From contig WVZY01000016.1 in assembly GCA_011772205.1 (NCBI GenBank), forward strand, positions 21,634-85,633: DNA of 64,000 bases. The letters are read 5' to 3'. The notes beneath the pieces were generated by a model. The model saw nothing but the letters and a program-made list of their open reading frames with translations. It did not search any database and was not told the origin of the DNA. A program made the position numbers and the translations under genes. Each line of letters begins with the position of its first letter. The stretch's first letter is position 1. Below, piece after piece: positions 1 to 15,049 of the stretch. Source of the DNA: Candidatus Latescibacterota bacterium (lineage in GTDB: Bacteria; Krumholzibacteriota; Krumholzibacteriia; WVZY01).

Positions 1-2183
1 AAACGGTCGACCTTGTCCATGATCCCCATCATCTCGAATGCCGAATTGAAATATGGCTCGGCTCCGCGGCCATCGAATTGATCGACATAGAGAATGTCTC
101 CGCCTCTTGCTGGACCCGCACCGGGAAGAATCTGCATCTCCATTGGGGCTGCGCAAGCCTCATCGATTTCGTCCACCGCACCCGTGAATTGGCTCCACCA
201 TGTTGAAGCCGCGTTGGCATCCGTTGCTCCGAAGAAGAACCACAGGGTGTCTCCACCCGTAAAGAAATGGTCGTTGAGATCGATGCAGAATTTGTCAGGC
301 ACCGGCCCGGTCCGCGGACCACTCGACTCCGTGAACACCGTGTCGAGGCGGAACTGATACCACGTACGTCCCCCGCAGATCACCGAATCGACCACTGGCC
401 AGCGGTAGCTATTCTCCACGATCTTATCGAGCGGCATCGGCTTGCTTTGAGGGTCGCGAGAGAGATAGAAGTACGCTGCCGAGCCAAATCCGCTCAACGG
501 ATCGGGCTCCTGGAGACCAAACGTCGGCTCGCTTACTGTAACGATTGCGGAATCGCCCGGCACATTGAGCCCGTCGCGATACGCCGTAATGTCGGTCGCT
601 GCATCAATGCGACCGGTTCCAACGCTGGTCCCGTCTTCAGGGAAGGTATCGTTGAAGAGATCGATGTCGCTTACACTCCACTGGGGACCCGTTATGCTAA
701 TGCGTCGGAATACGACATTGTCGAATAGCGGTGAGTGCGTGTGACATTCCTCGTACGGGCAATAATAATATTTGCAATAATCCCCACATCCCAGAGCCAG
801 CTGGACATGAGAGGCGTTAGGCGCGATGAGATCGCCGAGAGGCCGGACGCAAGTCCCCCATTCCTTAATGGAACCGTAATAGATATAATTGCGGTCTCGC
901 CATTTTCCAGGGCACGCATTGACCCAAGATCGAATGTGCCACACATAGAAGACCATTTCCGGCAGCTCCAGATCCAGGTATACATCATAGACCAGCTCAT
1001 AGACCGAACCAGCACCTTGAGTGTGGTCAATAAAAGGCGACCAGATCTCGTTAAAGATGTACTGGCCACGTGAGTTCACATAGGGAACGACGATCTGCTC
1101 GGGGTGCCCGCCACATGCATACGTAGCGGTAGATCCCTCGATAAATGCCCACATGCATGAGAGGTTCCATGCACAAGGATCCTCCTGGAGAAGAGTGCTC
1201 CCATGAAACAATCCAGCAAAATCCCCGTATGGCAGCCCTTTAGCGCAGGTCCAGTCACCGTCAGCTGCAGCGATATCTCCAGAAGACTCATCCTCGAAAT
1301 CCTCGAAGTCATAAACAGTGTAGGCTGTTCCAACAGTAATGCTGTCGATAATGACCGCACCATCCGTATCCCACAAGCCATCCTGATCAGACCAGCCGCC
1401 GTCGGACTCGAATTGGAAACGAATCCTGATGGCGCCTCGATGAGTTGAAATAAGTTCAGTGCGCGACTGCTTCGCTCCAACACCGTCGAAAGTCGCGATC
1501 CCGTGCCAATCCCACGGGGCGATCATTTCAACGCTTGATAACGAATCACATGTACTCTTTGTCGCATACTCGAGGTATGTATAGTCTAAGCCAGGCTCAG
1601 AATCCCAAGCGACAAGGTAGCTAATGAAAATCTCTTCGGTGTCTGGAACTTCGATGCACTTAAAACACCAGCTTTGATCCCATTCATTTCCGTAGCCTGG
1701 GAGAGCTGCGTACCTACAAAGGATCGTGTTTGCCGTATCAGGTCGGGCGCCACACCAAAGCGACTGCGAACCTTCGAGAGGAGCAAGGCGGCCGAATGTC
1801 CCACCATTCAGCCCCGCGAAATCGTCTATATGGAAATAACAGCCGGTCTGCGCGGTCAAATCATGCGACGTCCAAACCTCATCTGTGCATTTTCCTGCCC
1901 CTCCGTCAAACGTCCACTGAGCAAGGATAAACGTATCCGCATGAGCGGATGCCCTGAGCCCCTGCTCTTCCAATGGCCGATCCAAGTCTAGGATGCTCGG
2001 CTTTTCAACGCGAAACTTGTAACGTGCTTGATTTTTTTTAAGAGACGCCCTTCGCGCATGCGTCGGTGAGAAAAAGAAGCTGGCCAACAAAACACTGAGA
2101 ACAAAAACCTTTGAGATGTGGAGTAGATGTAGCTTAAATGATGGAGCGATTAAAAAATACCGATGCGGAGATTTCGAGTACAT
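1..2183 (-). CDS. Large secreted/cell-surface hypothetical protein; the C-terminus runs off the left window edge
   Basis: Hand translation of the minus strand from ATG 2183 (AGGAGG about 8 nt upstream) stays open to base 1, at least 727 codons. It starts MYSKSPHRYFLIAPSFKLHLLHISKVFVLSVLLASFFF (hydrophobic signal/anchor), followed by a Cys/Trp/Asp-rich region (...FESDGGWSDQDGLWDTDGAVIIDSI...). It is absent from the ORF track because it has no stop inside the window. The listed ORFs in 29-1991 are short other-frame shadows. Confidence 0.7.
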   Translation of the reverse strand, partial: MYSKSPHRYFLIAPSFKLHLLHISKVFVLSVLLASFFFSPTHARRASLKKNQARYKFRVEKPSILDLDRPLEEQGLRASAHADTFILAQWTFDGGAGKCTDEVWTSHDLTAQTGCYFHIDDFAGLNGGTFGRLAPLEGSQSLWCGARPDTANTILCRYAALPGYGNEWDQSWCFKCIEVPDTEEIFISYLVAWDSEPGLDYTYLEYATKSTCDSLSSVEMIAPWDWHGIATFDGVGAKQSRTELISTHRGAIRIRFQFESDGGWSDQDGLWDTDGAVIIDSITVGTAYTVYDFEDFEDESSGDIAAADGDWTCAKGLPYGDFAGLFHGSTLLQEDPCAWNLSCMWAFIEGSTATYACGGHPEQIVVPYVNSRGQYIFNEIWSPFIDHTQGAGSVYELVYDVYLDLELPEMVFYVWHIRSWVNACPGKWRDRNYIYYGSIKEWGTCVRPLGDLIAPNASHVQLALGCGDYCKYYYCPYEECHTHSPLFDNVVFRRISITGPQWSVSDIDLFNDTFPEDGTSVGTGRIDAATDITAYRDGLNVPGDSAIVTVSEPTFGLQEPDPLSGFGSAAYFYLSRDPQSKPMPLDKIVENSYRWPVVDSVICGGRTWYQFRLDTVFTESSGPRTGPVPDKFCIDLNDHFFTGGDTLWFFFGATDANAASTWWSQFTGAVDEIDEACAAPMEMQILPGAGPARGGDILYVDQFDGRGAEPYFNSAFEMMGIMDKVDR

Positions 2184-2333
2184 AATGACTACCTCCTAAC
2201 GCTCATGCGCTTCCTTTCTGATAAGTGCCGAATCGTTATGCTTGAGCACTGGATTGTGGGATCACGATAGAAGTATATCATATAATTAACGATATCCAAA
2301 GGACAAAGGTCGCCGCCGATCCCCATTCTTCCC

Positions 2334-3224
2334 CTATTCCAGGCACATGTCTATTTTGAGTCCGAGGACTCTGCCATGGCAATCCTCAGCAAGACAGAAC
2401 TTATAAAAGCCTCCTGGCCTGACAACACCCTTCGCTACTTGCATGCCAAGAGCAACACTATTAGAAAATCGATCATCAAATTCTGGATATTCTTCAGTCA
2501 GGATAAACTCCCCAGCGTACTCAAGAAATACAGCTATATGTGAAAAATGTATCCCTCCCGATACACCGCAGTGATAGAGAAGCTCGATCTCTCTCGTCCT
2601 TTTCCCTGTAGGTATCCATATATCTTGCCCAAATTCGAATACAAACTTACCGCCGCGAGATGGAATAAGGTGATAAGCAAAATTACCGTATATGCTCAGT
2701 GTCTTTGGCCAATACTTTTCCCTTTCGTAGAAATTCGTCTTCAAACTGAACTCACTGAAGCTGGTTTGTTCTGAAGCTGTTGGCAGGAATATGCCAGCAG
2801 ATACATTCGCGCCCGTTTCCTCCGTATAAACCCACCGTTTCTGAAGCCCGAGAAAAATATTGCCGATACCGTTCTCTTTATACGTACTTCTAATAGACGC
2901 AAAAGGATATATGGATGGGTCTCGGCGGGCATGATAAACAATTACTGGCAGCGAATAGATGAAATTAATATCTGAACTCACAGGCAAGTTGCAAGATAAA
3001 TCATAAATCCCCGAAAATCTCGAAAGATCATAATTCCGAGGCGAATACTCGTCTCCAAAGTACGGCCTCAGATACCTTAACGTGATTTGAGATTTACTCG
3101 TGGGAATACTCTGCAAAAGAACATTTTGCGCTGATGCAATGTCAACCGACAGTCCTGCACAAAGCAGCAAAGCTGATACTATTGAAGAGCGTTTTCCCAA
3201 GGCCGAATCGGCAAAACATGCCAT
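2334..3224 (-). CDS. Hypothetical secreted protein, possibly an outer-membrane beta-barrel
   Basis: ORF 2334..3281. The preferred start is ATG 3224 (GGAGG upstream), which gives a signal-like N-terminus MACFADSALGKRSSIVSALLLCAGLSVDIASAQ. The sequence has alternating aromatic/hydrophobic strand-like segments and no enzymatic motif. The fold is inferred from composition only. Confidence 0.5.
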   Translation of the reverse strand: MACFADSALGKRSSIVSALLLCAGLSVDIASAQNVLLQSIPTSKSQITLRYLRPYFGDEYSPRNYDLSRFSGIYDLSCNLPVSSDINFIYSLPVIVYHARRDPSIYPFASIRSTYKENGIGNIFLGLQKRWVYTEETGANVSAGIFLPTASEQTSFSEFSLKTNFYEREKYWPKTLSIYGNFAYHLIPSRGGKFVFEFGQDIWIPTGKRTREIELLYHCGVSGGIHFSHIAVFLEYAGEFILTEEYPEFDDRFSNSVALGMQVAKGVVRPGGFYKFCLAEDCHGRVLGLKIDMCLE

Positions 3225-3334
3225 TTGGACCTCCGCTTCTTGAACGCTGAGAACGAGGAGCGTGAATGAGACACGCAGCATCTAAGGTTTTTCAAGCCGG
3301 CCTCCCATTTCACGCCGCTACAGATGATTTACTT

Positions 3335-4702
3335 TTACTTTAGCAAGATCATTTTCCTCGTCAGTGCTTTATGTCCAGCTCTCAAGCGATAAAAATACAC
3401 TCCCGATCCGACTAAAGCCCCCCTGGCGTCAGTGCCGTCCCAGGTAAATTCTCTAACTCCTCTATCAAACCCAAACGCCTCATTGAAAAGAACCTTGATC
3501 AATTTGCCTTCTACATCGTAGATCGATAGATTAGCGAAAGAGTTCTCGGGAACCGTAAAAGATATGGTTGTCGTAGGACTGAATGGATTGGGATAATTCT
3601 GGCACAGTGCAAATCGACTCGATGGAATTGGTTCCTCAATTCCTGTCACCGTGCAACCCACAGGAAATGCCCCTATGAGCTGGCTACATAGGCTGTGATC
3701 AGGAGATGCCGGCGAAATGTCGGCAATCTTGAAGTTATGGTCGTCAGGATTGCAAAAACAGGGATCATCGATTTTATCGGCCGGGCCGAGGGGATCCCCT
3801 TGGATAGCACCATACTCGTTCGACCAAAATAGATTGCAGGCATGCACGCCGGCTGAGTCCATATATGCCAGGCCAAATCCTTCGGAATCGTCGCAAAAAA
3901 TATTTCGCAATATTGTGACAGTGGGGCTCCAGTGTATATTGATCGTTGCACCGTCTGGCGATACATTTGAATAGAACGTATTGTTCCACACATGCCCCGC
4001 CCCGACATAATAGTAGATGCACCCTGAAGTGACTGCGGAATTCTCGTAAAAAAGGTTATTGAACACTTCCATGCGACTCGAACTCGCGCACACGAGCGCT
4101 CCGCCTCCCTCTTGTGCGGAGTTTTCGCAAAACGTGCAATTTGTAATTCTCATCTCCCCATCGAGGAGCACCGCGGCGGCGCCGCCTTTATGATGGGCAT
4201 GGTTTCCTATGAAGGTGCATTTGTCTATTTCCGATCGGGATTCGGGATTGGCCACGACGATCGCTCCGCCATCGTAAGTTGACACGTTGTTTTCGAAGAC
4301 GCAATCGCGCAAGGTAACCCAAGCGCTCGACCCGACTCGCACGGAACCTCCGTTATTTGTGTGGTATCCATCGATAAACGTGAATCCACTTATTTCAGTT
4401 TCCGCGCCGCCCCAGAATACGATATGGCGATGGATGCCATTGCCGTCTATGATCGTATTTTCAGGACCATCGGTTGACACGAACGTCAAAGTGAAATTGA
4501 CTTCGAAATACTCCGGATACTTTCCAGGTCCAACTTCGATGGTATCAAATGGAATTGCCGCAGCAACAGCATCTGTGATGGTGTCGTAGTCTCCTGTGTT
4601 GTCCTTCCGGACGATGATGACGCGAGCGGAGCCCAAAATGGGATGAAATATGAATGGAGAGGATATGACCAGCAAAAGGAACGTAATTGCTTTTGTCCGC
4701 AT
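3335..4702 (-). CDS. Right-handed parallel beta-helix repeat protein with a T9SS-type C-terminal sorting domain
   Basis: ORF 3335..4789. Start ATG 4702 gives the signal peptide MRTKAITFLLLVISSPFIFHPILGSA. It contains repeated beta-helix rungs (GGAIVV, GGAAAV, GGGALV, NxF/NNxF). The C-terminus LCQNYPNPFSPTTTISF...GVYFYRLRAGHKALTRKMILLK is typical of T9SS / FlgD-Ig-like C-terminal domains. Confidence 0.75.
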   Translation of the reverse strand: MRTKAITFLLLVISSPFIFHPILGSARVIIVRKDNTGDYDTITDAVAAAIPFDTIEVGPGKYPEYFEVNFTLTFVSTDGPENTIIDGNGIHRHIVFWGGAETEISGFTFIDGYHTNNGGSVRVGSSAWVTLRDCVFENNVSTYDGGAIVVANPESRSEIDKCTFIGNHAHHKGGAAAVLLDGEMRITNCTFCENSAQEGGGALVCASSSRMEVFNNLFYENSAVTSGCIYYYVGAGHVWNNTFYSNVSPDGATINIHWSPTVTILRNIFCDDSEGFGLAYMDSAGVHACNLFWSNEYGAIQGDPLGPADKIDDPCFCNPDDHNFKIADISPASPDHSLCSQLIGAFPVGCTVTGIEEPIPSSRFALCQNYPNPFSPTTTISFTVPENSFANLSIYDVEGKLIKVLFNEAFGFDRGVREFTWDGTDARGALVGSGVYFYRLRAGHKALTRKMILLK

Positions 4703-4796
4703 GACGATACCCCCCTGATCAATCGGGAGTTGGAGCAAATGTCTCAGCACATGGCGATTGATTATCCGAGGTTTGCCTCTCCCTTGCATATGAGCA

Positions 4797-4931
4797 TTAT
4801 TTCAACAACACAATCTTCCTGCTCTGAGTTTGCCCTCCTGATTCAAGCTTGATGAAATAGACTCCAGAGCTCACCTTATCGCCATTTTGATCCCGCCCAT
4901 CCCATGACACGCGATGCTCGCCTTTTGATTG
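4797..4931 (-). pseudogene. Orphan relic of a T9SS C-terminal sorting domain (distal half only)
   Basis: Hand translation gives QSKGEHRVSWDGRDQNGDKVSSGVYFIKLESGGQTQSRKIVLLK followed by a stop. There is an in-frame TGA directly upstream (4932-4934) and no start codon or cargo domain. Confidence 0.6.
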
Positions 4932-5587
4932 TCAGCGAGGAGCCATCGCAATGCATGCCCCCACCTAAGCTGTTGCTTCCTCTCTTGACTGTTAGGAGTT
5001 GTTTCATAACAACATCACCTCGTGTGAAATAGCGCATCGTTCAAGAGTGATGGATGGGAACCTGATCTGCAAAGCTTACATTCTTAGAAGCACTTCTTCA
5101 TTTGTCGTATAACAATTTCCAGATCCATGAATCGTAGGATCCGGGTAAGATCTTCGTCCTCGAGGAAATGAATCAAAGATGCATTGTGGATTACTGCAGA
5201 ACGCGATGAAGAAATGTTCAAGAAGGATAATTTCGAAGGTGCTGAATTAATTGCGATCCCTCCCCCATCAATAAACCCTTCCCCTCGAGACGCGCCTGGC
5301 TGTTTGGTGTGCAGGGGATTTGGATAAGCGCGCAGATTATACCATAAAATAAACAATAATTGAAGGGCGAAGGGCAACAGTCGATGCACATCGACATTGG
5401 CAGGAGGACACCGTATATGCACACTGATGAAAATTGCGTTTCCCTTTATACACCTTACCCCCTTTATCCACAAAAAGCTGAAAAATAGAAAGATAGCTCA
5501 TTGATCCCTGCATTAAAAATGATCCACTCAAGACGCCACACGCTGGGTATAGCCGTCGATTTTTCTATAAGAACGTACTTTGCCCCT

Positions 5588-5785
5588 CTACTTTAAAAGC
5601 AGCATCTTCCTCGTCTGGACGAAGTTCTTCGTGTGCAGCCTGTAGAAATATATTCCAGTGGCTACCGACTGACCCATCTCGTTCCTGCCATCCCAGGTAA
5701 CCGCGAAGCATTCCGGGCGATGTGTTTGATATTCATTGACAAGCATTCGCACCAGCTGTCCGGCGACGTTATAGACCTTGATCCA
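5588..5785 (-). pseudogene. Orphan relic of a T9SS C-terminal sorting domain
   Basis: Hand translation gives WIKVYNVAGQLVRMLVNEYQTHRPECFAVTWDGRNEMGQSVATGIYFYRLHTKNFVQTRKMLLLK followed by a stop. There is an in-frame TGA at 5786-5788 where repeat copy A (5780..5893) overlaps the fragment's 5' end. No cargo domain lies upstream. Confidence 0.65.
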
Positions 5786-5893
5786 TCAAAATCCAACATT
5801 GCGCATGTCTCGTTTGCCGCGAGACGATTTCCGCAGCGCGCTATAACTTTAGACGCACGAGAGGACCATGAGCCGAGTGGTAGACGAGACATG
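5780..5893. repeat. Copy A of a ~90-bp element bounded by 10-bp terminal inverted repeats (CATGTCTCGT...ACGAGACATG), with a 24-nt flank on its left
   Basis: Core 5804..5893 matches 54323..54412 in the same orientation, with 7 mismatches in 90 nt by hand alignment. Flank 5780..5803 (GATCCATCAAAATCCAACATTGCG) recurs reverse-complemented on the other side of copy B. Confidence 0.7.
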
Positions 5894-6009
5894 CGAAGTC
5901 ATTTGAACGTAATTATCACCAGGTACTTCACAAGATAAATCGCTGCGATTTTCCGACGGATTCAGGTTAGAGTCGAACGCTTCTCGGCGTCATCTGGAAA
6001 TCCACACCA

Positions 6010-7071
6010 TCAATCGAGATCAAATCCCAATCCCGGCTTGCCCGTCGGGTACAGCATCCCTTTTCGGAGAATCACTGCTCCGGCCGACGGGTCGCCCTCG
6101 AGATCGAGGTGTCCATCCAGGTCGCAGTACGCCACGTTGGGCCTTGCCAGTGCAAAGCTGAGTCCCGCGGCAATTGCGAGCGCGGCCTCGTCCATGCACC
6201 CCACCATGACTTCCAGGCCGGCCGATCGCGCAACGGCATTTACCAGCTCCGCCTCGCAGATCCCTCCGACCTTCATCAGCTTCACGTTGACCATGTCGAC
6301 GAGATCCCGTTTCGCCAGGCGAAACGCATCCCGAAGGCTGGTGAGGCTTTCGTCTGCCATGATCGGCAGATGGGCCTTCTTTGTCACTCTTCCCAACAAC
6401 TCCGCGTCAGCGCTCGTGGTGGGTTGTTCGAAGAGCTCGAGTCGCGTTTGCCGGGTGGCTACGATGAACTTGAGTGATTCCCTGACCGAGTATCCCTGAT
6501 TGGCATCGAAGCGGAGCTCGATGTTGTCTCCAACTTTCTCTCGCACCCGGCGAATTCGGTCGATGTCCTCATCGACGTCCAGGCCGCCTTTGATCTTCAG
6601 GGCACGGAAGCCCTCGGCAACACGGCGCGCGGCGTGTTCGGTGGTCTGCTCAACAGACATGATGCCGATGGTAACGCTGGTCTTGAAACCCCGACGAAAT
6701 CCTCCCAAAAGCCTCCAAAGCGGGAGTCCTGTGACTTTTCCCAAAATGTCGTGGACGGCCATGTCCAATGCGGCAATGGCCGCGGGCTGCCCTTTGAGCA
6801 CCGATTTGATGCGCTCGACGAGTCGCGCCACCCGCAGCGGATCGGCTCCCCGCAAACGGTCGGCCGATTGGGCGATCCCGCTCAGCACGGACTCGCACGT
6901 CTCCCCCGTCACGTTCGCATCGGGCGCCGAGCAGCCATACCCGGTCACCCCTCGCGACGTTTCGATACGAACGAACACGTTCGTCGCGGCTTCAACGGTT
7001 TCATATGCTATCGTGTACGGCTCGCGCAGCCTCATCTCTACCGGCCACGCTTCCACCTTGGTGATCTTCAT
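6010..7071 (-). CDS. Enolase-superfamily dipeptide epimerase / N-acyl-amino-acid racemase-like enzyme (MR/MLE family)
   Basis: ORF 6010..7173. The start ATG 7071 gives MKITKVEAWPVEMRLREPYTIAYETVEAATNVFVRIETSRGVTGYGC..., the typical N-terminal capping domain. The barrel motifs are KIKGG, RFDANQGY, LFEQP and MADES. Confidence 0.8.
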   Translation of the reverse strand: MKITKVEAWPVEMRLREPYTIAYETVEAATNVFVRIETSRGVTGYGCSAPDANVTGETCESVLSGIAQSADRLRGADPLRVARLVERIKSVLKGQPAAIAALDMAVHDILGKVTGLPLWRLLGGFRRGFKTSVTIGIMSVEQTTEHAARRVAEGFRALKIKGGLDVDEDIDRIRRVREKVGDNIELRFDANQGYSVRESLKFIVATRQTRLELFEQPTTSADAELLGRVTKKAHLPIMADESLTSLRDAFRLAKRDLVDMVNVKLMKVGGICEAELVNAVARSAGLEVMVGCMDEAALAIAAGLSFALARPNVAYCDLDGHLDLEGDPSAGAVILRKGMLYPTGKPGLGFDLD

Positions 7072-7085
7072 GACACCAACCGCAC

Positions 7086-9422
7086 TCAGTAACGTTTCTG
7101 AAATATTTCGTCCAGCGAGAGCTTCTTGAGGTCCTCCACGAAGGCAACGAGATGTTTGACCATCGCATCCCACATTTTCTTCCCCTTCTCCGCGCTGGCC
7201 CGCGTGGGGTCGCCCATCACACCGCTGTCGGAAATTCTTTTCGTGAAGGCATGCCAGGAGATGGCGCGCTTTGAAGTGAAGTTCAAGTAGTGGCTGGAAA
7301 ACTCCGGCACGAGCTTCTCCGCGAACTCCATGCGAACGAGCTCCGGCCGCGTGGCCAGGCTCGTGCTCGTCTCGATCTCGCCGGCATGGACGTCATTGAA
7401 TGTTTCGGTCATCGACTCGATGTCCACGTCGCTCGTCTCACCCGTATCCACACAAACGAAAATGCGGGCGTCGCGGTTGATCTGCTGAGCGGCAAAGTTT
7501 AGCGCCGGTGTGTTGCCGGCGTGGCCGTTGATGATGACCAGCTTGGTAATGCCGTTTTTCGCCGCGCTCATGCCGATCTCGTACACCATGCTGGCGAGGG
7601 TCTGGTTGCCGATGCTGATCGTTCCGCTGAAATCGTCATGGTGATACGACACGCCGTATGATATCAGCGGAAAGACGATAGGCTTTGGATCGCTGCATGC
7701 TTTGGCCACGCTCGTTGCCAGATATTCCGCGTCGAAGGCGTCCGTATCGAGGGGCAGGTGCGGTCCGTGCTGCTCGATCGAGCCCACGGGCAGCAGTGCG
7801 ACGTCCGTTTCCTTGAATCGCTTTTTCGCTTCGGGCCACGTCATTTCCGCCAGCGAGTGCATGCTGCTGCGAGCGGCACTGCGGCTGGGTGACTTGCGCC
7901 GCCGGTCGCGTCTCTCGAACGGGTACGGGCGGTTGATCGCCGGATCGTTGAGCAAATCGACATCTTCCCACAGCCGTCCCATGCGGCGTACCGCTCCGTC
8001 GGCGTGCTCGAGCAGGATCCGGTAGAGGGGCGCCCGAATGTCGGCTGGAATGCTGTCCGGAGGCGACTTCTCGCCATCGAATCGCAGCTTGAGGATCTCG
8101 CGCCGCTGCTTTGCTGCGTGTTTGCTTTTGCCGCGCAGGCGAACCACTTCTCTTTCCTCGAGCATCCACATGAGCTGCTCGGCGCCGGACCGCTCCTGAT
8201 GAACCCCCTGGGTCACCAGCGCATCCAGGCAAAGGTCGATCTGCTGTTTTGTATAACCGCAGCGGGTCGGATCGCCGCCGTTGGCCAGTACCATACCGAC
8301 GATACGACGGCACTTCTCACATTTCCCGCAGGGGTACGCCCGTTTCCCCACTGTGGTTGCGGCGTGGCAGGACATTTGATGTGCGAACAAATTAGGGTAG
8401 CGCTGCACGAGAACGCGCTCGATCATGAGTTCGGACAGCGGCCGTAGAAGGGAGAACTGACTCAACGGCCAGCTCTTTTTGGCATAGTAGCGGCTGAGTG
8501 CATTGTCGAAGTAGCGGCTCTGGTCGTACAGGCCGTCGTAATGCGTGATCCCGTGGTACGTGGTTCGAGCGCTCGTGTCGTGTTCATCGCCGATAACCAG
8601 ACGCGCCGCGCCTCGTTTACGCACGAGCGGCAGCGCGCCAAAAAGGAATACGGCGACCGTCCACAACCGGATCGGATACTCATCCGAACGCAGCTGCGCA
8701 AAGTCCGGCCTGATGAACGGCAGCCGCCGAAGCATCCAGGCAAACATGCGATCCGAGGTCATCCACACGCGCGTCGTGTTCGCCACGTTCTCGTGGAAAT
8801 GCCGATAAGCATTGAGCGCGGTGAACCAGTGTCTACCGGACTCGTTGCCAAATATCGGGTGCACCTCGTAACCGAGTTCGTTCAACAGTCCATAGCTCAG
8901 CAAGCTGTCTTTGCCACCGCTGGACAGGACGGCGATCTTGTTGCGGTTACTGTTCGATGGTTCCCAGGTAATGCGCTCCCTGCTGGAGAAGCTTTCGAAT
9001 ATGAGTTCGGCGCGCAGGTAGCGGTTTTGCTTGACTATGGGGAGTCTTGCCGCTTCCGCTTTCAAGAACGGATTTGGCTCGAGAAGCTTCTTTACATAGA
9101 TTTCGCGCGCTGTGTTCTCCGCCATGTCACGCAGAAAGCGGCGGTCAACGGCGTCGAACGTCCCGTGAAAGACGATCCTGCCGCAGAAAAGACCGTAATT
9201 GAGCGCCACCTGAGCAGCGATCATATTGGCGAGGTTCACATCGGCGGGATCCTGTGGGTCGAACACCTCTTCGGCATATCGGAACATCAGCTCGGAGGTG
9301 TGGCGGGTACCTTTTTGAACAACGGCGTGCGGAGCAACCAGACGGCGTTTTTCCACCTTCACGGGTCCAACATGCAGCTCGTCGATGACGTTCAGGATCC
9401 GGAGCGGGTCGGCCTGTTTCAT
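7086..9422 (-). CDS. Fusion protein: N-terminal PP-loop (SGGKDS) ATP-pyrophosphatase-like domain with a Cys cluster, plus a C-terminal creatininase-family amidohydrolase domain
   Basis: ORF 7086..9605. The preferred start ATG 9422 overlaps the upstream stop (ATGA). The N-terminal part contains AVLSSGGKDSLLSYGLL (PP-loop) and CHAATTVGKRAYPCGKCEKC. The C-terminal ~240 aa contains LPVGSIEQHGPHLPLDTD, INGHAGN and HAGEIETS, which are creatininase-family signatures. Confidence 0.75.
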   Translation of the reverse strand: MKQADPLRILNVIDELHVGPVKVEKRRLVAPHAVVQKGTRHTSELMFRYAEEVFDPQDPADVNLANMIAAQVALNYGLFCGRIVFHGTFDAVDRRFLRDMAENTAREIYVKKLLEPNPFLKAEAARLPIVKQNRYLRAELIFESFSSRERITWEPSNSNRNKIAVLSSGGKDSLLSYGLLNELGYEVHPIFGNESGRHWFTALNAYRHFHENVANTTRVWMTSDRMFAWMLRRLPFIRPDFAQLRSDEYPIRLWTVAVFLFGALPLVRKRGAARLVIGDEHDTSARTTYHGITHYDGLYDQSRYFDNALSRYYAKKSWPLSQFSLLRPLSELMIERVLVQRYPNLFAHQMSCHAATTVGKRAYPCGKCEKCRRIVGMVLANGGDPTRCGYTKQQIDLCLDALVTQGVHQERSGAEQLMWMLEEREVVRLRGKSKHAAKQRREILKLRFDGEKSPPDSIPADIRAPLYRILLEHADGAVRRMGRLWEDVDLLNDPAINRPYPFERRDRRRKSPSRSAARSSMHSLAEMTWPEAKKRFKETDVALLPVGSIEQHGPHLPLDTDAFDAEYLATSVAKACSDPKPIVFPLISYGVSYHHDDFSGTISIGNQTLASMVYEIGMSAAKNGITKLVIINGHAGNTPALNFAAQQINRDARIFVCVDTGETSDVDIESMTETFNDVHAGEIETSTSLATRPELVRMEFAEKLVPEFSSHYLNFTSKRAISWHAFTKRISDSGVMGDPTRASAEKGKKMWDAMVKHLVAFVEDLKKLSLDEIFQKRY

Positions 9423-10558
9423 CGAAACGTGATCCACGCCAACTTCTCCCGTAAGAGACCTCGTTTTCTCTTGATTGCGGAACGGGCAGTGGCCACCCGC
9501 TTTTTCGCGAGGGGAGCTAGAGCTGCGATGACTTTCATGGGTCCATCTACCAGAACGTCGACGGTGGGCAGTCCGATGCGCCGTTCGATGGTGGCACACA
9601 CCCACGGCAGCTGGTGTTTTGGAATCCCTTCATGATTGATCGTCACCGCCACTACCTTTGTATCCGATATCAACTCCAGCGCTTGAATTTGCTTGCGCAT
9701 TGGGTGGATGGGATGGCCTGGAAATCCATCGTAATCCTTGCGGGCTGGCGCATGCTGCAGAACGATCGCGTCCGGGCGGGCCGCCGCGAGGATCTCGAAG
9801 CCCCCTGGGTAAGCGGGATTCATGAGGCTCCCCTGTCCCTCGATGACGATGACATCGGGTCTCCTTTCGACCCAAGCGAGGTAGACCGCATGCTCGATCT
9901 CACCGGCGACGAAATCGTTCACCAGCGAGTCCATGATGACGCCGTAACGCACCCCCTGCATCCACGCTGTTTGTCCGGTCCCGATCATTTCACACGTGAA
10001 TCCCGCTTGGCGAAAACCCTCCACCAGCTTCCATGCGGTGGTTCGCTTGCCGACAGCCGAATCGGTGCCCAGGACTGCGATCTTGAACGCGTTGACCTTC
10101 GCAATGTCGCCGGTGAAGAAATGCAGCTCAGACTTGGGCGGCGGCTTGCGCACATCGGTGAGGATCACGCCTTTTTTCGCGGCCAAGGCGCTCATCTCGG
10201 AATCTTCCGAGAGGAAGTCATGGAGACCGGAGTCCACGTTCAGACCCATGGTGATGGCCCGCTTTATATCTCTCCGGACCGCCGGGTCCATGCGGCCGCC
10301 ATCGGGGGCAAGACCGACGACCATGTGGCTGGCAGGGCGGCCTCGCATGTGCGATGCGTTTGCAGCCTCTTGCAGCGAGCCGAAGATAGGAATGTCATAG
10401 CTCTTACCGTCCAGAACCAGACCGGCCTCCTGTCCGCGATAGCGGCTGTCAATAACGCCTACCACGTTGTAACGTGCTGTAAAACGCACGAGGCCATGCG
10501 CCGTCTTTCCGTTGGGCGTATTGAAAGCTCCTTCACAGTAAACGATGGCATTGGGCAT
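9419..10558 (-). CDS. DUF1611-family protein (DgcN-like)
   Basis: ORF 9419..10828. The conserved region starts at MPNAIVYCEGAFNTPNGKTAHGLVR (ATG 10558). It contains a P-loop-like GTDSAVGKRTT motif and EGQGSL. The upstream 90 in-frame codons are low-complexity, so the true start could be as far up as 10828. Confidence 0.72.
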   Translation of the reverse strand: MPNAIVYCEGAFNTPNGKTAHGLVRFTARYNVVGVIDSRYRGQEAGLVLDGKSYDIPIFGSLQEAANASHMRGRPASHMVVGLAPDGGRMDPAVRRDIKRAITMGLNVDSGLHDFLSEDSEMSALAAKKGVILTDVRKPPPKSELHFFTGDIAKVNAFKIAVLGTDSAVGKRTTAWKLVEGFRQAGFTCEMIGTGQTAWMQGVRYGVIMDSLVNDFVAGEIEHAVYLAWVERRPDVIVIEGQGSLMNPAYPGGFEILAAARPDAIVLQHAPARKDYDGFPGHPIHPMRKQIQALELISDTKVVAVTINHEGIPKHQLPWVCATIERRIGLPTVDVLVDGPMKVIAALAPLAKKRVATARSAIKRKRGLLREKLAWITFR

Positions 10559-11341
10559 CGACTTTCCAATCGCCTGCTCGCGAGCGGGACGAGTACCTGA
10601 TTCATGATAAAGGTTCCTTGTAGCGCCACTCGAGCTGGAGGCTTCCGCCTGCTCTTCGAGGGGACGCAGGAAATCCCCGGTTGCTTCCATCGAGGGAGAT
10701 GCAGTGACTTGAAAGGATTCTTGGTCTGCGGTGGCTTCGTTCGGTCCAGGGTCGGACAGCGCACCGCCGCTGTCCTCAGCTGCTCCTTTTTCCATTCGTC
10801 TCACTTTCTTCCGGCCCTCTGCGCCCAACCGTTTGCATGCGATGGTCGGTAAACGACCACTTTTGAAGGGCTCATGGGCAGTGTCGATGGTGCGCCTATG
10901 GAGTCGTCGGCTGGCGAAGCTCCATTCGTTCAGCGCTGAGCCGAATCCCGATCGAGCAGCAGAGCACTGGTGATGTGATCGAGGGTCCGTTCAGCGCATT
11001 CGCTCCGCTGACTCGCGTGAGCAAACTGCAAAATTCGTACCGCAGCCCAGCCAACTTTGACTTCGATCGCCCAGGGCTCAACTGACGGTACTCAACCGCG
11101 AACGCTCACTCCCTCGCGACTTGACTCCGGTGGGCGAACTGCCAATTGCCGAAGAAACGATTGAGCCGCTATGTCATCTCCTCCAGCTAGCGGAACGGCT
11201 CCTGAAGAGTGAGTGTCATTTCGCATGACCTGCCTGATTATTGAAACCCTGCGAGGTCGGCCGCCCTCCGATCCTCGCCCGGTTTATATGGCCCATCTTG
11301 GGGCGGAGGCCTTTCAAGTGAACGGCTGCTAGCGCCGTTCA

Positions 11342-12979
<1,638 letters not shown>

Positions 12980-12995
12980 TCATTTAGAACGAAAT

Positions 12996-13280
12996 CTAGA
13001 TCGTCGCCAGAATATCGCTCTCGTGCATAATGAGATACGTATCGCCATCGATCTCAATTTCCGTTCCCGAGTATTTGCCGAACAGAACCCGGTCACCCTT
13101 CTTTACATCGAGCGGGATTCTCTCGCCCTTCTCGCTCAACCGACCCTCCCCAACCGCGATTACCTTTCCCTCCTGAGGCTTCTCTTTAGCGGTGTCAGGA
13201 ATAACGATGCTTCCCTTTCGTTTTTCCTCTTCCTCTTCTGGTACGATGAGAACCCGATCGGCTAGTGGACGGATCTTCAC
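12996..13280 (-). CDS. groES: Co-chaperonin GroES (Hsp10)
   Basis: 94 aa, GTG start with AGGAGG upstream. Sequence [44 protein letters not shown]. It sits 40 nt upstream of groEL. Confidence 0.95.
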
Positions 13281-13439
13281 TGAATCCTCCTATTCTGGCA
13301 CACAAGTCACATATACAAACCCGGGGGAACATGCCGGGCGAATGTTAACGTTATTGTTAACGCTTCGATCAACCAGTGAACCCCACGTGCGCGCCGTCCC
13401 CCGATTTTAATCTCGACATTAATATACTCTGGATAAAGC

Positions 13440-13464
13440 TTTATGTCAAGATGCTTGACATAAA
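13440..13464. promoter_or_regulatory. Perfect 11-bp-arm palindrome TTTATGTCAAG-ATG-CTTGACATAAA; candidate MarR operator
   Basis: Read directly from the sequence. The right arm contains the -35 hexamer of the putative marR promoter, and the site lies in the groES/marR divergent region. Confidence 0.5.
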
Positions 13465-13483
13465 AATTTTTAGCCACTATATT
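13455..13483 (+). promoter_or_regulatory. Sigma70-like promoter TTGACA-N17-TATATT for the MarR gene
   Basis: -35 at 13455-13460, a 17-nt spacer, and -10 at 13478-13483. The ATG at 13490 is only 6 nt past the -10, which implies a leaderless or near-leaderless transcript. Confidence 0.45.
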
Positions 13484-13489
13484 ATAGAT

Positions 13490-13984
13490 ATGAAACGAGA
13501 CCCTTTCGATAACGTCCGCGAGCAGTGGGATAAGGAACGACCGGACCTCGACACGTCGGGCCTGGAAGTACTATGGCGTATCTCTTATCTTCACAAAGAC
13601 TTGAGGCACGCTGCTGGCAAGAGACTCGCCAAGCTGAACCTGCCCAACTGGGCATTCGATGTACTGGCGAGCCTGCGCCGGCAAGGGCCTCCCTACCAGA
13701 TGTCCCCATCGGAATTATGTGAGGCGGCCATTCTGACGTCCGGGGCCATGACGAACCGGCTCGACCGCCTGGAGGAAGCAGGCCTCGTGGAGCGTCACCC
13801 CGATCCGAACGACCGCAGGAGCTTGAATGTCAGGCTCACGTCCAAGGGTAAGGACGTCATCGACCGGGCCGTCGGCGTGCGCTTCGAGCACGCCAACCAG
13901 GCACTGTCTCCGCTCAGCGAAGCGGAACGGCGTCAGCTGGTACGCCTGTTGAGGAAACTCGTGGCCGCCCGCGTTGAGGTTTGA
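13490..13984 (+). CDS. MarR-family transcriptional regulator
   Basis: The internal start of ORF 13376..13984 gives MKRDPFDNVREQWDKERPDLD... The winged-helix region reads MSPSELCEAAILTSGAMTNRLDRLEEAGLVERHPDPNDRRSLNVRLTSKG. Confidence 0.85.
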   Translation: MKRDPFDNVREQWDKERPDLDTSGLEVLWRISYLHKDLRHAAGKRLAKLNLPNWAFDVLASLRRQGPPYQMSPSELCEAAILTSGAMTNRLDRLEEAGLVERHPDPNDRRSLNVRLTSKGKDVIDRAVGVRFEHANQALSPLSEAERRQLVRLLRKLVAARVEV

Positions 13985-14284
13985 TTGGTCGCCCAACGAT
14001 CCTAGTATGGATGCCCTGCTGCAGAGCAGATACGTGCTACGGCACCTTTTCGATGTTTCCATCAATTCAGGGGAAGATCAATCATCCAAAACTGTTCAGC
14101 TCGAGTCCGTTCTGGGCCCCCTAACTGCAAGAAGTAAGAGCTATCCTTGGCGCAGGATATGTGCCATAATCATCAAAAGTCTGCACTGCACATGTCTTGT
14201 AACTCACGGAGCGAACAAAGACGATCCTGAGCTAAAAGTTCTTCTGCATGTAAGAACGAATAGCTAATCTCAAAGGAGGTTGTC

Positions 14285-15049
14285 GTGTTTGCTCCGAAAT
14301 CCCACCATAAGATGACGTCACATAAGTGCGCCAGCACTATGCGGTCGCTCTTTCGCTGTCCCCCCAATCCTGCGTCAGCAACCCAACACTTTTGCAGGGG
14401 ATTAGGCTTTTTGTCATTACTGTTGTTGGTTGCCGGCGCCGTGCCCGTCCATGCGCATGTCCAGATCGGTAACTACACCCTGGCCACGTCCGCTTTTGCC
14501 GATGAGGCCACGCAGGTCGCCGGCACGCCCTGGACATCAGGCTGTTTCCACAGACAAACCTACCGTATATGCATGCCGCCAGAGAACGGACTGGCTGGAT
14601 ACGGTGGTATAGGCATCGATGCCGGTGTGCACATCGCAAGCGATATGGTCTTTCAATTGGATTTCATCGATAACGTTGTTGTGAATCAAACAGGGTCGGA
14701 TCTGGTCCTATTCGACGCAGCTTTTACCGCTACAAGCGGCTACAACATAGCTGTGGGTGATAGTGCAGGATTTGAAACTTTCATCGCGTTTCCTCCCGAC
14801 AGGGCAATCTACGCGGGTATCTCCGATTTGTACTGGTATGACTTCCACGGGCCTCATTGGGCCGGTGTCATGGCAATCGAAATTGAACTGGATGATTTCG
14901 GGATCGCTCCGGGTGCGCTCATCACATCGATTCGCATTCAGGCAACGGAGCCTACCGGCTCGAATCCTTTGTCCGCGGCAGCGCTGCATAGCGATGTTGT
15001 CCCCGCGGAGAGTCGAACCTGGGGACTGATCAAGTCACTGTATCGATGA
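14285..15049 (+). CDS. Hypothetical secreted protein
   Basis: GTG start with AAGGAGG 6 nt upstream. Hydrophobic segment LGFLSLLLLVAGAVPVHA. No recognisable catalytic motif. Ends ...SRTWGLIKSLYR. Confidence 0.55.
   Translation: MFAPKSHHKMTSHKCASTMRSLFRCPPNPASATQHFCRGLGFLSLLLLVAGAVPVHAHVQIGNYTLATSAFADEATQVAGTPWTSGCFHRQTYRICMPPENGLAGYGGIGIDAGVHIASDMVFQLDFIDNVVVNQTGSDLVLFDAAFTATSGYNIAVGDSAGFETFIAFPPDRAIYAGISDLYWYDFHGPHWAGVMAIEIELDDFGIAPGALITSIRIQATEPTGSNPLSAAALHSDVVPAESRTWGLIKSLYR

Follow-up and report, generated by a model that had tools for sequence, protein, structure and literature searches.

What does a cell do with a DUF1611 protein, an enolase-superfamily epimerase and, encoded between them, a PP-loop ATPase module fused to a creatininase-type amidohydrolase? 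The question is posed by a 64,000-nucleotide stretch of contig WVZY01000016.1 from a Candidatus Latescibacterota bacterium (assembly GCA_011772205.1), hereafter called the window, in which three long open reading frames (ORFs) for these proteins occupy the minus strand within positions 6010–10828. An earlier note on this DNA had linked the genes to the DgcN–DgcA pair (a D-Glu N-acetyltransferase and an N-acetyl-D-Glu racemase) and had proposed a route that activates, epimerises and deacylates a D-amino acid, a dipeptide or a peptidoglycan fragment. The comparison with related loci showed that the three genes are the operon-like remnant of a widespread four-gene cassette, consisting of a ThrC-like pyridoxal phosphate (PLP) enzyme, DUF1611, the fusion and a dipeptide-type epimerase. 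Tentatively, with a probability of about 0.35, we propose by analogy with characterised enzymes that the cassette would serve a biosynthetic route of acylation, epimerisation, ATP-dependent activation and deacylation leading to a small modified amino acid.

The fusion gene proved to be common. A species-level scan, with one genome per species, yielded at least 572 loci that encode it, and a query with its N-terminal module alone brought up over 3,000 clusters at 90% identity. Of the 120 best-ranked clusters, almost all were proteins of about 780–800 residues with a creatininase domain, named, if at all, "creatininase family protein". The hosts are mostly sediment heterotrophs and span more than 10 phyla (Latescibacterota, Zixibacteria, Ignavibacteria, Calditrichia, Gemmatimonadota, Desulfobacterota, Planctomycetota, Acidobacteriota, Aminicenantes, Bacteroidota and others); two of them, Desulfosarcina variabilis and strain NaphS2, are cultured. 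Across phyla, the fusion proteins are about 60% identical. The statement of the earlier note that it knew of no described pathway with this combination stood: the literature search found no description of either the fusion or the cassette, and no link to a characterised pathway.

Neighbourhood statistics were collected from 80 loci. In 69 of them the fusion is flanked immediately by DUF1611 on its upstream side and by the epimerase on its downstream side, with strand and order unchanged, so the three genes are co-conserved as the earlier note had expected; the spacer between the fusion and epimerase genes is mostly 0–20 nucleotides. A PLP gene immediately precedes DUF1611 in 71 loci; since contig ends truncate the remaining nine, these 71 are all of the informative loci. 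With the window counted as the 72nd informative locus, it is the only one that lacks the gene. The closest relative of the window fusion, P0002 (72% identical over the full length), is encoded on contig L081 in the order PALP–DUF1611–fusion–epimerase, with genes that overlap or nearly abut. Six loci from Desulfobacterales have the PLP gene directly upstream of the fusion, with neither DUF1611 nor the epimerase. Of all its partners, the PLP enzyme thus accompanies the fusion most constantly, and this subset shows that the cassette is modular.

Deeper relatives came from a library that had been clustered at 50% identity and was searched exhaustively, giving 469 representatives. The creatininase domain is still attached in distant fusions (P0154 and P0156) at 30–33% identity, and further combinations of the same parts occur: P0124 is an 855-residue DUF1611::N-module fusion, and a single ORF of 1037 codons (L037, 2160–5270) encodes a DUF1611::N-module::creatininase triple fusion. 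The representatives also include standalone N-modules of about 460–520 residues, and standalone homologues at 35–41% identity adjoin DUF1611, the PLP gene or both (L083, L085 and L086). At L085, the creatininase domain is replaced by a separate GNAT::HDAC-type amidohydrolase, whose gene shares an operon with two tandem paralogues of the N-module; orthologues of this protein (≈700 bits) adjoin the cassette in Calditrichia and Desulfobacterota. Because standalone N-modules still adjoin DUF1611 or the PLP gene, and because an HDAC-type amidohydrolase can be swapped in, the robust unit is the PLP enzyme, DUF1611, the QueC/MurL-like ATPase and an amidohydrolase, with the enolase-type epimerase as a frequent fifth activity. 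Taken together, the domains, motifs and predicted fold, the very strong co-conservation and the gene fusions imply that these proteins act in one pathway. Degenerate PP-loops, such as VDGTRES and VSGSAES, were seen in the distant homologues P0154, P0156, P0133 and P0210, the first two of which are still fused to creatininase, and in no member of the clade that includes the window protein; these homologues may be non-catalytic paralogues.

The fusion enzyme stands at the centre of the cassette. Its N-terminal half matched no Pfam family at threshold; the sub-threshold matches were DUF7411 and QueC (PF06508, 14.5 bits against a gathering score of 22, over residues 345–372 alone). The SGGKDS PP-loop and the cluster of four Cys residues are invariant in 61 aligned family members. 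Among homologues at 26–48% identity C352, C365 and C368 are still invariant, and the form SGGK(D/E)S is retained by most of the distant standalone homologues. AlphaFold2 modelled residues 1–521 with a mean predicted local distance difference test (pLDDT) score of 89.8 and a predicted template modelling (pTM) score of 0.89, with disorder limited to the linker at residues 507–521. In this model SGGKDS follows a strand at residues 159–167, as in the PP-loop ATP pyrophosphatase superfamily. A Foldseek search against the PDB placed QueC on top (2pg3 and 3bl5; TM-score on target 0.68–0.71), followed by the QueC-like proteins QatC and Cap9 and then by the PP-loop sulfurtransferases MnmA and TtuA; the best structural matches were PP-loop enzymes throughout. 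The modelling thus confirms the PP-loop fold that the earlier note had assigned to the N-terminal half and predicts a QueC-like core at about residues 159–380, flanked by an α/β sub-domain (about residues 1–150) and a helical C-terminal extension (about residues 385–505).

QueC, QatC and Cap9 are generally known for ATP-dependent activation of carboxylates, and the module shares with them the PP-loop and an equivalently placed Cys-rich site C-terminal to the PP-loop core (C352, C365, C368 and C371), which is a putative metal site. It differs from them in its size of about 500 residues, with two extra sub-domains, and in its context, which includes no queuosine or defence genes. The matches to QatC and Cap9 had raised the possibility that the cassette belongs to a defence system of the QatABCD or CBASS kind, but none of the three window proteins matched any PADLOC defence-system model, and with no defence-like context this candidate was dropped.

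The only named NCBIfam family that the N-module matched was MurL (NF041275), with 28.6 bits against a cut-off of 700 (E = 5e-7) over about 100 residues (271–374), a region that includes the Cys cluster. The weak match recurs in 24 of 25 family members and suggests a distant relationship. MurL has been reviewed as an ATP-dependent epimerase without known domains, whose target is a peptide's C-terminal residue and which is proposed to adenylate the α-carboxylate (PMC8788868); no MurL structure was among the PDB fold matches, and as far as the profile match and this description go, the N-module resembles it in being ATP-linked and free of Pfam domains. If the module worked in the same way, it would adenylate the α-carboxylate at the C-terminal end of a peptide-like substrate and thereby labilise the α-proton, the amidohydrolase would resolve the adenylate or an oxazolone or else trim the product, and the enolase-type epimerase would act on another stereocentre or another substrate. 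We consider this quite unlikely. The match is short and far below the cut-off, two epimerases in one cassette would be redundant, and the core fold resembles that of the amide-forming enzymes QueC, QatC and Cap9. No Mur-ligase cluster of the MurD2 type was found among the conserved neighbours of the 80 loci, and the window protein further differs from MurL in its fused amidohydrolase and in its host phyla.

The C-terminal domain belongs to the creatininase family (PF02633, 244 bits against 31.3). Its best NCBIfam model was MftE (TIGR03964), the creatininase-family peptidase that takes part in mycofactocin maturation, at 160.8 bits just under the cut-off of 172, while creatininase proper (TIGR04448) gave 117.3 bits against 235. 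When the domain was aligned with 1j2t, 1q3k, 3no4 and 3lub, the motifs E-x-H...D, NGH and H-x-G-E-x-E were found to be conserved. Equivalents of the creatininase metal ligands (Glu34, His36, Asp45 and His120) and of the catalytic His178 are all present. The position of the creatininase-specific Glu122, a second-metal ligand, is Gly in the fusion, in the sequence NGHAGN, and the GHxGN-type metal site is shared with MftE. Unlike MftE, the window domain is fused to an ATPase and has no mftA, mftB, mftC or mftD nearby; neither the recurrent neighbours nor the flanks of the window included a radical-SAM MftC-like or other mft gene. An inter-domain channel was also considered, but the full-length AlphaFold2 model, with a pTM of 0.65, a disordered linker and a hydrolase domain poorly modelled as a monomer, was uninformative, and the idea was set aside.

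PP-loop synthetases are recurrently fused to ammonia-generating hydrolases, as in GMP synthetase, NAD synthetase and asparagine synthetase B, where the partner is a glutaminase. By analogy, the fusion could be a new amidotransferase, in which the creatininase-type domain would free ammonia or an amine from an amide donor and the QueC-like domain would amidate an adenylated carboxylate. The persistence of the fusion in P0154 and P0156 speaks for this arrangement, as does the known chemistry of QueC, which converts a carboxylate first to an amide and then to a nitrile, using ammonia. Nevertheless, we judge it very unlikely. The models show a disordered linker and predict no packing that resembles a channel; P0154 and P0156 keep the hydrolase next to a degenerate PP-loop, which fits an obligate synthetase partner poorly; and the hydrolase at L085 is a separate HDAC-type protein. 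Moreover, we know of no member of the creatininase family that serves as an ammonia donor domain.

The epimerase matched MR_MLE_N and MR_MLE_C (9e-50), and its nearest solved relatives are dipeptide epimerases: 3jva (9e-71), then 3rit and then YkfB (1jpm). K159-x-K161, K267 and D317-x-D319 are invariant in 66 orthologues, and the stretches DANQ, EQP and ADES align with the Asp/Glu/Asp metal ligands of YkfB. The protein therefore carries the full dipeptide-epimerase-type signature of the MLE subgroup of the enolase superfamily: the KxK motif, the second Lys, the metal ligands and, beyond the eighth strand, the DxD motif. Fold, KxK/K acid–base pair, ligands and DxD are all shared with YkfB/YcjG, 3jva, 3rit and 2zad. 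Membership in the L-Ala-D/L-Glu epimerases, which the earlier note had mentioned as common in such neighbourhoods, did not hold up, however. The scores against the two corresponding models were 226.8 bits against 500 (NF041118) and 91.5 bits against 343 (NF011708), and the position of YkfB Arg24 is Glu in the window protein and in 62 of the 66 orthologues, while Tyr19 and Tyr23 are invariant. In YkfB, Arg24 is the residue that binds the Glu side chain of L-Ala-D/L-Glu. Glu24 then argues against this dipeptide as the substrate, and the replacement hints at a side chain that is cationic or hydrogen-bond-donating rather than acidic. The gene context also differs from the ykf and mpaA–ycjG murein-recycling loci. 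The window epimerase and its orthologues form a distinct clade of dipeptide epimerases.

The DUF1611 protein matched both Pfam models, PF07755 and PF17396 (204.9 bits against 25 and 80.1 against 22.6; DUF1611_C 1e-60, DUF1611_N 2e-22), and comprises an N-terminal Rossmann-like domain and a C-terminal P-loop domain. Its best solved relatives are 2g0t (Thermotoga TM0796, the closest), 7xrj and 2obn. Going by its NCBIfam name, DgcN is the only characterised DUF1611 protein; the window protein scored 152.4 bits against 480 with the DgcN model (NF041892, 1e-44), consistent with a distant relationship. Likewise, the epimerase scored 161.1 bits against 400 with the DgcA model (NF042940, 4e-47). In NCBIfam, DUF1611 and the epimerase are closest to DgcN and DgcA, but the analogy that the earlier note had drawn does not amount to membership.

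These similarities bear on a catabolic alternative, in which the DgcN–DgcA logic is extended to the salvage of D-amino acids, dipeptides with a D-residue or peptidoglycan fragments. DUF1611 would acylate, the epimerase would invert, the PP-loop module would activate, the creatininase domain would deacylate and the PLP enzyme would deaminate. A conversion of D-Glu to L-Glu by DgcN–DgcA has been reported (PMC10845958), and the cassette shares with that system the pairing of a DUF1611 protein with an enolase-superfamily racemase or epimerase and the acylate-then-invert order. It departs from that system in the dipeptide-type DxD of its epimerase, in the PP-loop/amidohydrolase fusion placed between the two genes and, in relatives of the window, in the added PLP enzyme. 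The dipeptide epimerases closest to the window protein are tied to murein-peptide recycling, and the sediment heterotrophs that carry the cassette would be plausible users of such a pathway. We find salvage unlikely all the same. The scores fall far short of the equivalog cut-offs, and the Arg24 that binds Glu in YkfB has given way to Glu. ATP use and ≈60% identity across phyla would be unusual for peripheral catabolism. Finally, no Opp/Dpp-type transporter, LD-carboxypeptidase, peptidase or catabolic regulator was recurrent in the 80 neighbourhoods. What does recur there is groES/groEL, Hsp20, the Mg2+ channels MgtE/CorA, DUF2179 membrane proteins, an AblA-like aminomutase/ATP-grasp/GNAT cluster and a GpgS-like gene. 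The lack of recurrent catabolic neighbours and the set that does recur weaken the peptidoglycan and D-amino acid salvage reading and make us favour biosynthesis over catabolism.

In the proposed biosynthetic route, the cassette would build, rather than degrade, a small modified amino acid or dipeptide-like metabolite by a protecting-group logic. The PLP enzyme would supply an amino acid, which the DUF1611 protein would N-acylate or N-aminoacylate, by analogy with DgcN. The epimerase would then invert the α-carbon of the residue with the free carboxylate, on a substrate whose α-ammonium group is presumably free, given the DxD motif. The PP-loop module would use ATP to adenylate a carboxylate or amide oxygen, and an amine would close or form an amide, lactam or amidine. 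Lastly, the fused amidohydrolase would strip the N-acyl or aminoacyl group, much as MftE removes a peptide from an amino-lactam. The chemistry has precedents. PP-loop enzymes of the QueC type use adenylation to open a carboxylate, or the oxygen of an amide or ureido group, to attack by a nitrogen nucleophile, β-lactam synthetase closes a lactam, and MftE cleaves the amide bond next to an amino-lactam. An acetamidino-forming sugar amidotransferase is a PP-loop enzyme that acts on an N-acetyl amide (PMC10607449), and the adenylation proposed for MurL (PMC8788868) would be a further case. Judging from the neighbouring genes, the product would most likely be a stress-related solute or a cofactor-like small molecule. 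The route partly takes up the activation, epimerisation and deacylation that the earlier note had envisaged; the part that concerned peptidoglycan salvage is weakened by the neighbours described above.

Several observations weigh against this biosynthetic route. Beyond the presence of the domains and their co-conservation, every step is drawn by analogy. The six Desulfobacterales loci with only the PLP gene and the fusion indicate that the cassette can do without acylation and epimerisation. The association with stress genes, which is suggestive, occurs in a minority of loci and is possibly coincidental. The full-length model gave no confident domain–domain arrangement that would suggest channelling within the fusion. 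The PLP enzyme lacks the phosphate-site residues of ThrC, so that even its reaction class may be another. Lastly, the window has no PLP gene, and the pathway may therefore be incomplete in this genome.

The PLP partner is a fold-type II enzyme that scored 438 bits against 266 with the legacy NCBIfam model PRK06381, named "threonine synthase", and 113 bits against a cut-off of 167 with TIGR00260. It has a conserved N-terminal leader, PLEERLEAFDDIxDSEVGDTTL in the L081 protein. In the latter (gene at 2852–3955), the positions of Thermus thermophilus ThrC residues T88, S155 and R160, which we take to form the substrate phosphate site, are Tyr, Ala and Gln, respectively. The database name "threonine synthase" is probably wrong for this protein.

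When the whole 64-kb window was searched with orthologues of the PLP gene by tblastn and phmmer, neither the gene nor a remnant of it was found with significance, and the 783 nucleotides between groEL and DUF1611, where the gene lies in relatives, encode nothing recognisable. A candidate remnant in the 5′ extension of the DUF1611 ORF, found by a single match to the L002 leader (E = 0.008, 30% identity over 53 residues), was rejected after a profile of 51 leaders and tblastx failed to reproduce it. The gap is most simply read as a clean loss of the PLP gene, but a copy could have been relocated elsewhere in the genome, or the region could be misassembled. It follows that the window cassette might itself be a decaying or rewired one, broken by the loss of the PLP gene, with the other three genes not yet degraded, or that the gap is an assembly artefact. 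That the window stands alone among the 72 informative loci, with nothing resembling the PLP gene anywhere in its 64 kb, is what such decay or misassembly would leave, yet we hold it to be distinctly improbable. All three ORFs are intact and keep every family-invariant residue, and the Desulfobacterales carry the complementary subset of PLP gene and fusion, in line with a modular cassette. In addition, the 64 kb are part of a 112.5-kb contig, and the PLP gene could be located in another part of the genome.

The features of the locus are collected in Table 1. Across the three proteins, the Pfam matches had E-values of 1e-19 to 1e-72, and the domain calls made earlier (DUF1611, PP-loop::creatininase and enolase-superfamily epimerase) were confirmed by Pfam, the PP-loop motif and the structural model. 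The tight packing on the minus strand was also evident on direct reading. The fusion ATG (9422–9420) shares bases with the DUF1611 TGA (9421–9419), in the sequence "...ttt cgA TGA aac ag", and the epimerase starts 14 nucleotides past the fusion stop, in the sequence "TAC TGA gtgcggttggtgtc ATG AAG". From this spacing and geometry we infer co-transcription and translational coupling of the three genes. The earlier note had extended the DUF1611 gene to 10828. The ORF does reach this position, but tblastx against more than 70 orthologous loci showed that similarity begins at 10552–10576. The true start is therefore most likely the ATG at 10558, while 10828 is simply where the longest ORF has its first TTG, and the extension is probably not translated as part of DUF1611. 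Scans for promoter and terminator consensus sequences gave counts no higher than the shuffled expectation. No known RNA element or riboswitch was detected at window positions 5000–14500 at E ≤ 0.1, or in six related loci at gathering thresholds.

Table 1. Coordinates of the features of the cassette locus in the window.
Feature	Position	Strand	Basis or remark
Enolase-superfamily gene of dipeptide-epimerase type, 353 aa	6010..7071	-	MR_MLE_N, MR_MLE_C
Epimerase Glu24 codon	7000..7002	-	Alignment with B. subtilis YkfB (Arg24 there)
Spacer of 14 nt, fusion stop to epimerase start	7072..7085	-	Direct reading
Fusion gene, 778 aa, PP-loop ATPase module and creatininase/MftE-like amidohydrolase	7086..9422	-	Pfam, NCBIfam, AlphaFold2, Foldseek
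Creatininase-family amidohydrolase domain, aa 525–762	7137..7850	-	Pfam PF02633, 2e-72
Inter-domain linker, about aa 507–523	7854..7904	-	pLDDT <50 in both models
Fusion N-terminal module, aa 1–506	7905..9422	-	AlphaFold2, Foldseek
Four-Cys cluster, C352...C365-x2-C368-x2-C371	8310..8369	-	Family alignments; resembles the QueC zinc site
PP-loop motif SGGKDS, aa 168–173	8904..8921	-	Family alignment
ATGA overlap of DUF1611 stop and fusion start	9419..9422	-	Direct reading
DUF1611 gene, 379 aa	9419..10558	-	DUF1611_N and DUF1611_C; probable start, from limit of homology
5′ extension of longest DUF1611 ORF, to TTG at 10828	10559..10828	-	No orthologue aligns
Gap between groEL and DUF1611, 783 nt	10559..11341		Position of PLP gene in relatives

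Upstream of the cassette, the window carries groEL (11342–12955, minus strand), groES (12996–13280, minus strand) and a divergent MarR-family gene (13376–13984, plus strand). On the Latescibacterota chromosome L002, the order is MarR, groES–groEL and then PALP–DUF1611–fusion–epimerase, and the window, apart from the PLP gene, matches this order exactly. The groESL genes were found near the cassette in eight other loci from several phyla, and Hsp20 in five. In about 17 of the 80 loci, the cassette is immediately followed, in the same orientation, by a gene for a DUF2179 membrane protein of either the YitT-like or the DUF5698+DUF2179 kind (L020, 13609–14562; L064, 6747–7616; L002, 13515–14105; L081, 8527–9111; and about 13 more); the window does not have one.

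In Calditrichia and Desulfobacterota, the cassette is adjoined by genes for an AblA-like lysine 2,3-aminomutase (493 bits against 525), two ATP-grasp enzymes of the D-Ala-D-Ala ligase family (Ddl-like), a GNAT protein and the GNAT::HDAC fusion (L018, 1684–7456; L045, 3–7474; L020, 391–6175; L024, 12396–18381; L085, 4679–6625). At one Calditrichia locus, the epimerase gene is followed by a gene for a glycosyltransferase resembling glucosyl-3-phosphoglycerate synthase (L018, 13508–14779), with 57 bits, well under the cut-off. Downstream of the cassette in the window, at positions 2001–6000, the G+C content is 0.45–0.48, compared with 0.58–0.60 within the cassette. This region includes a 484-residue ORF (3335–4789, minus strand) whose C-terminus, judging from its sequence, resembles a secretion-sorting domain.

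Each of the proteins falls in a known superfamily, and the three in the window all score below the curated cut-offs of the DgcN, DgcA, L-Ala-D/L-Glu epimerase, creatininase, MftE, QueC and MurL models. We class the cassette as a new pathway made from known enzyme folds, with an undescribed fusion enzyme. More speculatively, and with considerable doubt, the fusion could be a new type of enzyme, in which a QueC/MurL-like adenylating module and an MftE-like amidase carry out the ATP-driven cyclisation or amidation of an N-protected, D-configured amino acid and then its deprotection. What results would be a new small metabolite (an amino-lactam, amidine or D-amino acid amide, for instance) that serves as a stress solute or cofactor precursor in many anaerobic sediment bacteria.

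The breadth and strong conservation of the cassette make it a good target, and its presence in cultured hosts, Desulfosarcina variabilis and NaphS2, makes it experimentally tractable. The missing PLP gene of the window amounts to a natural "knock-out" that may reveal separable steps. If a function were found, it would give DUF1611 a role beyond that of DgcN, and it would give functions to a relative of QueC and MurL of about 500 residues with no Pfam family, to a misnamed "threonine synthase" clade and to a distinct clade of dipeptide epimerases.

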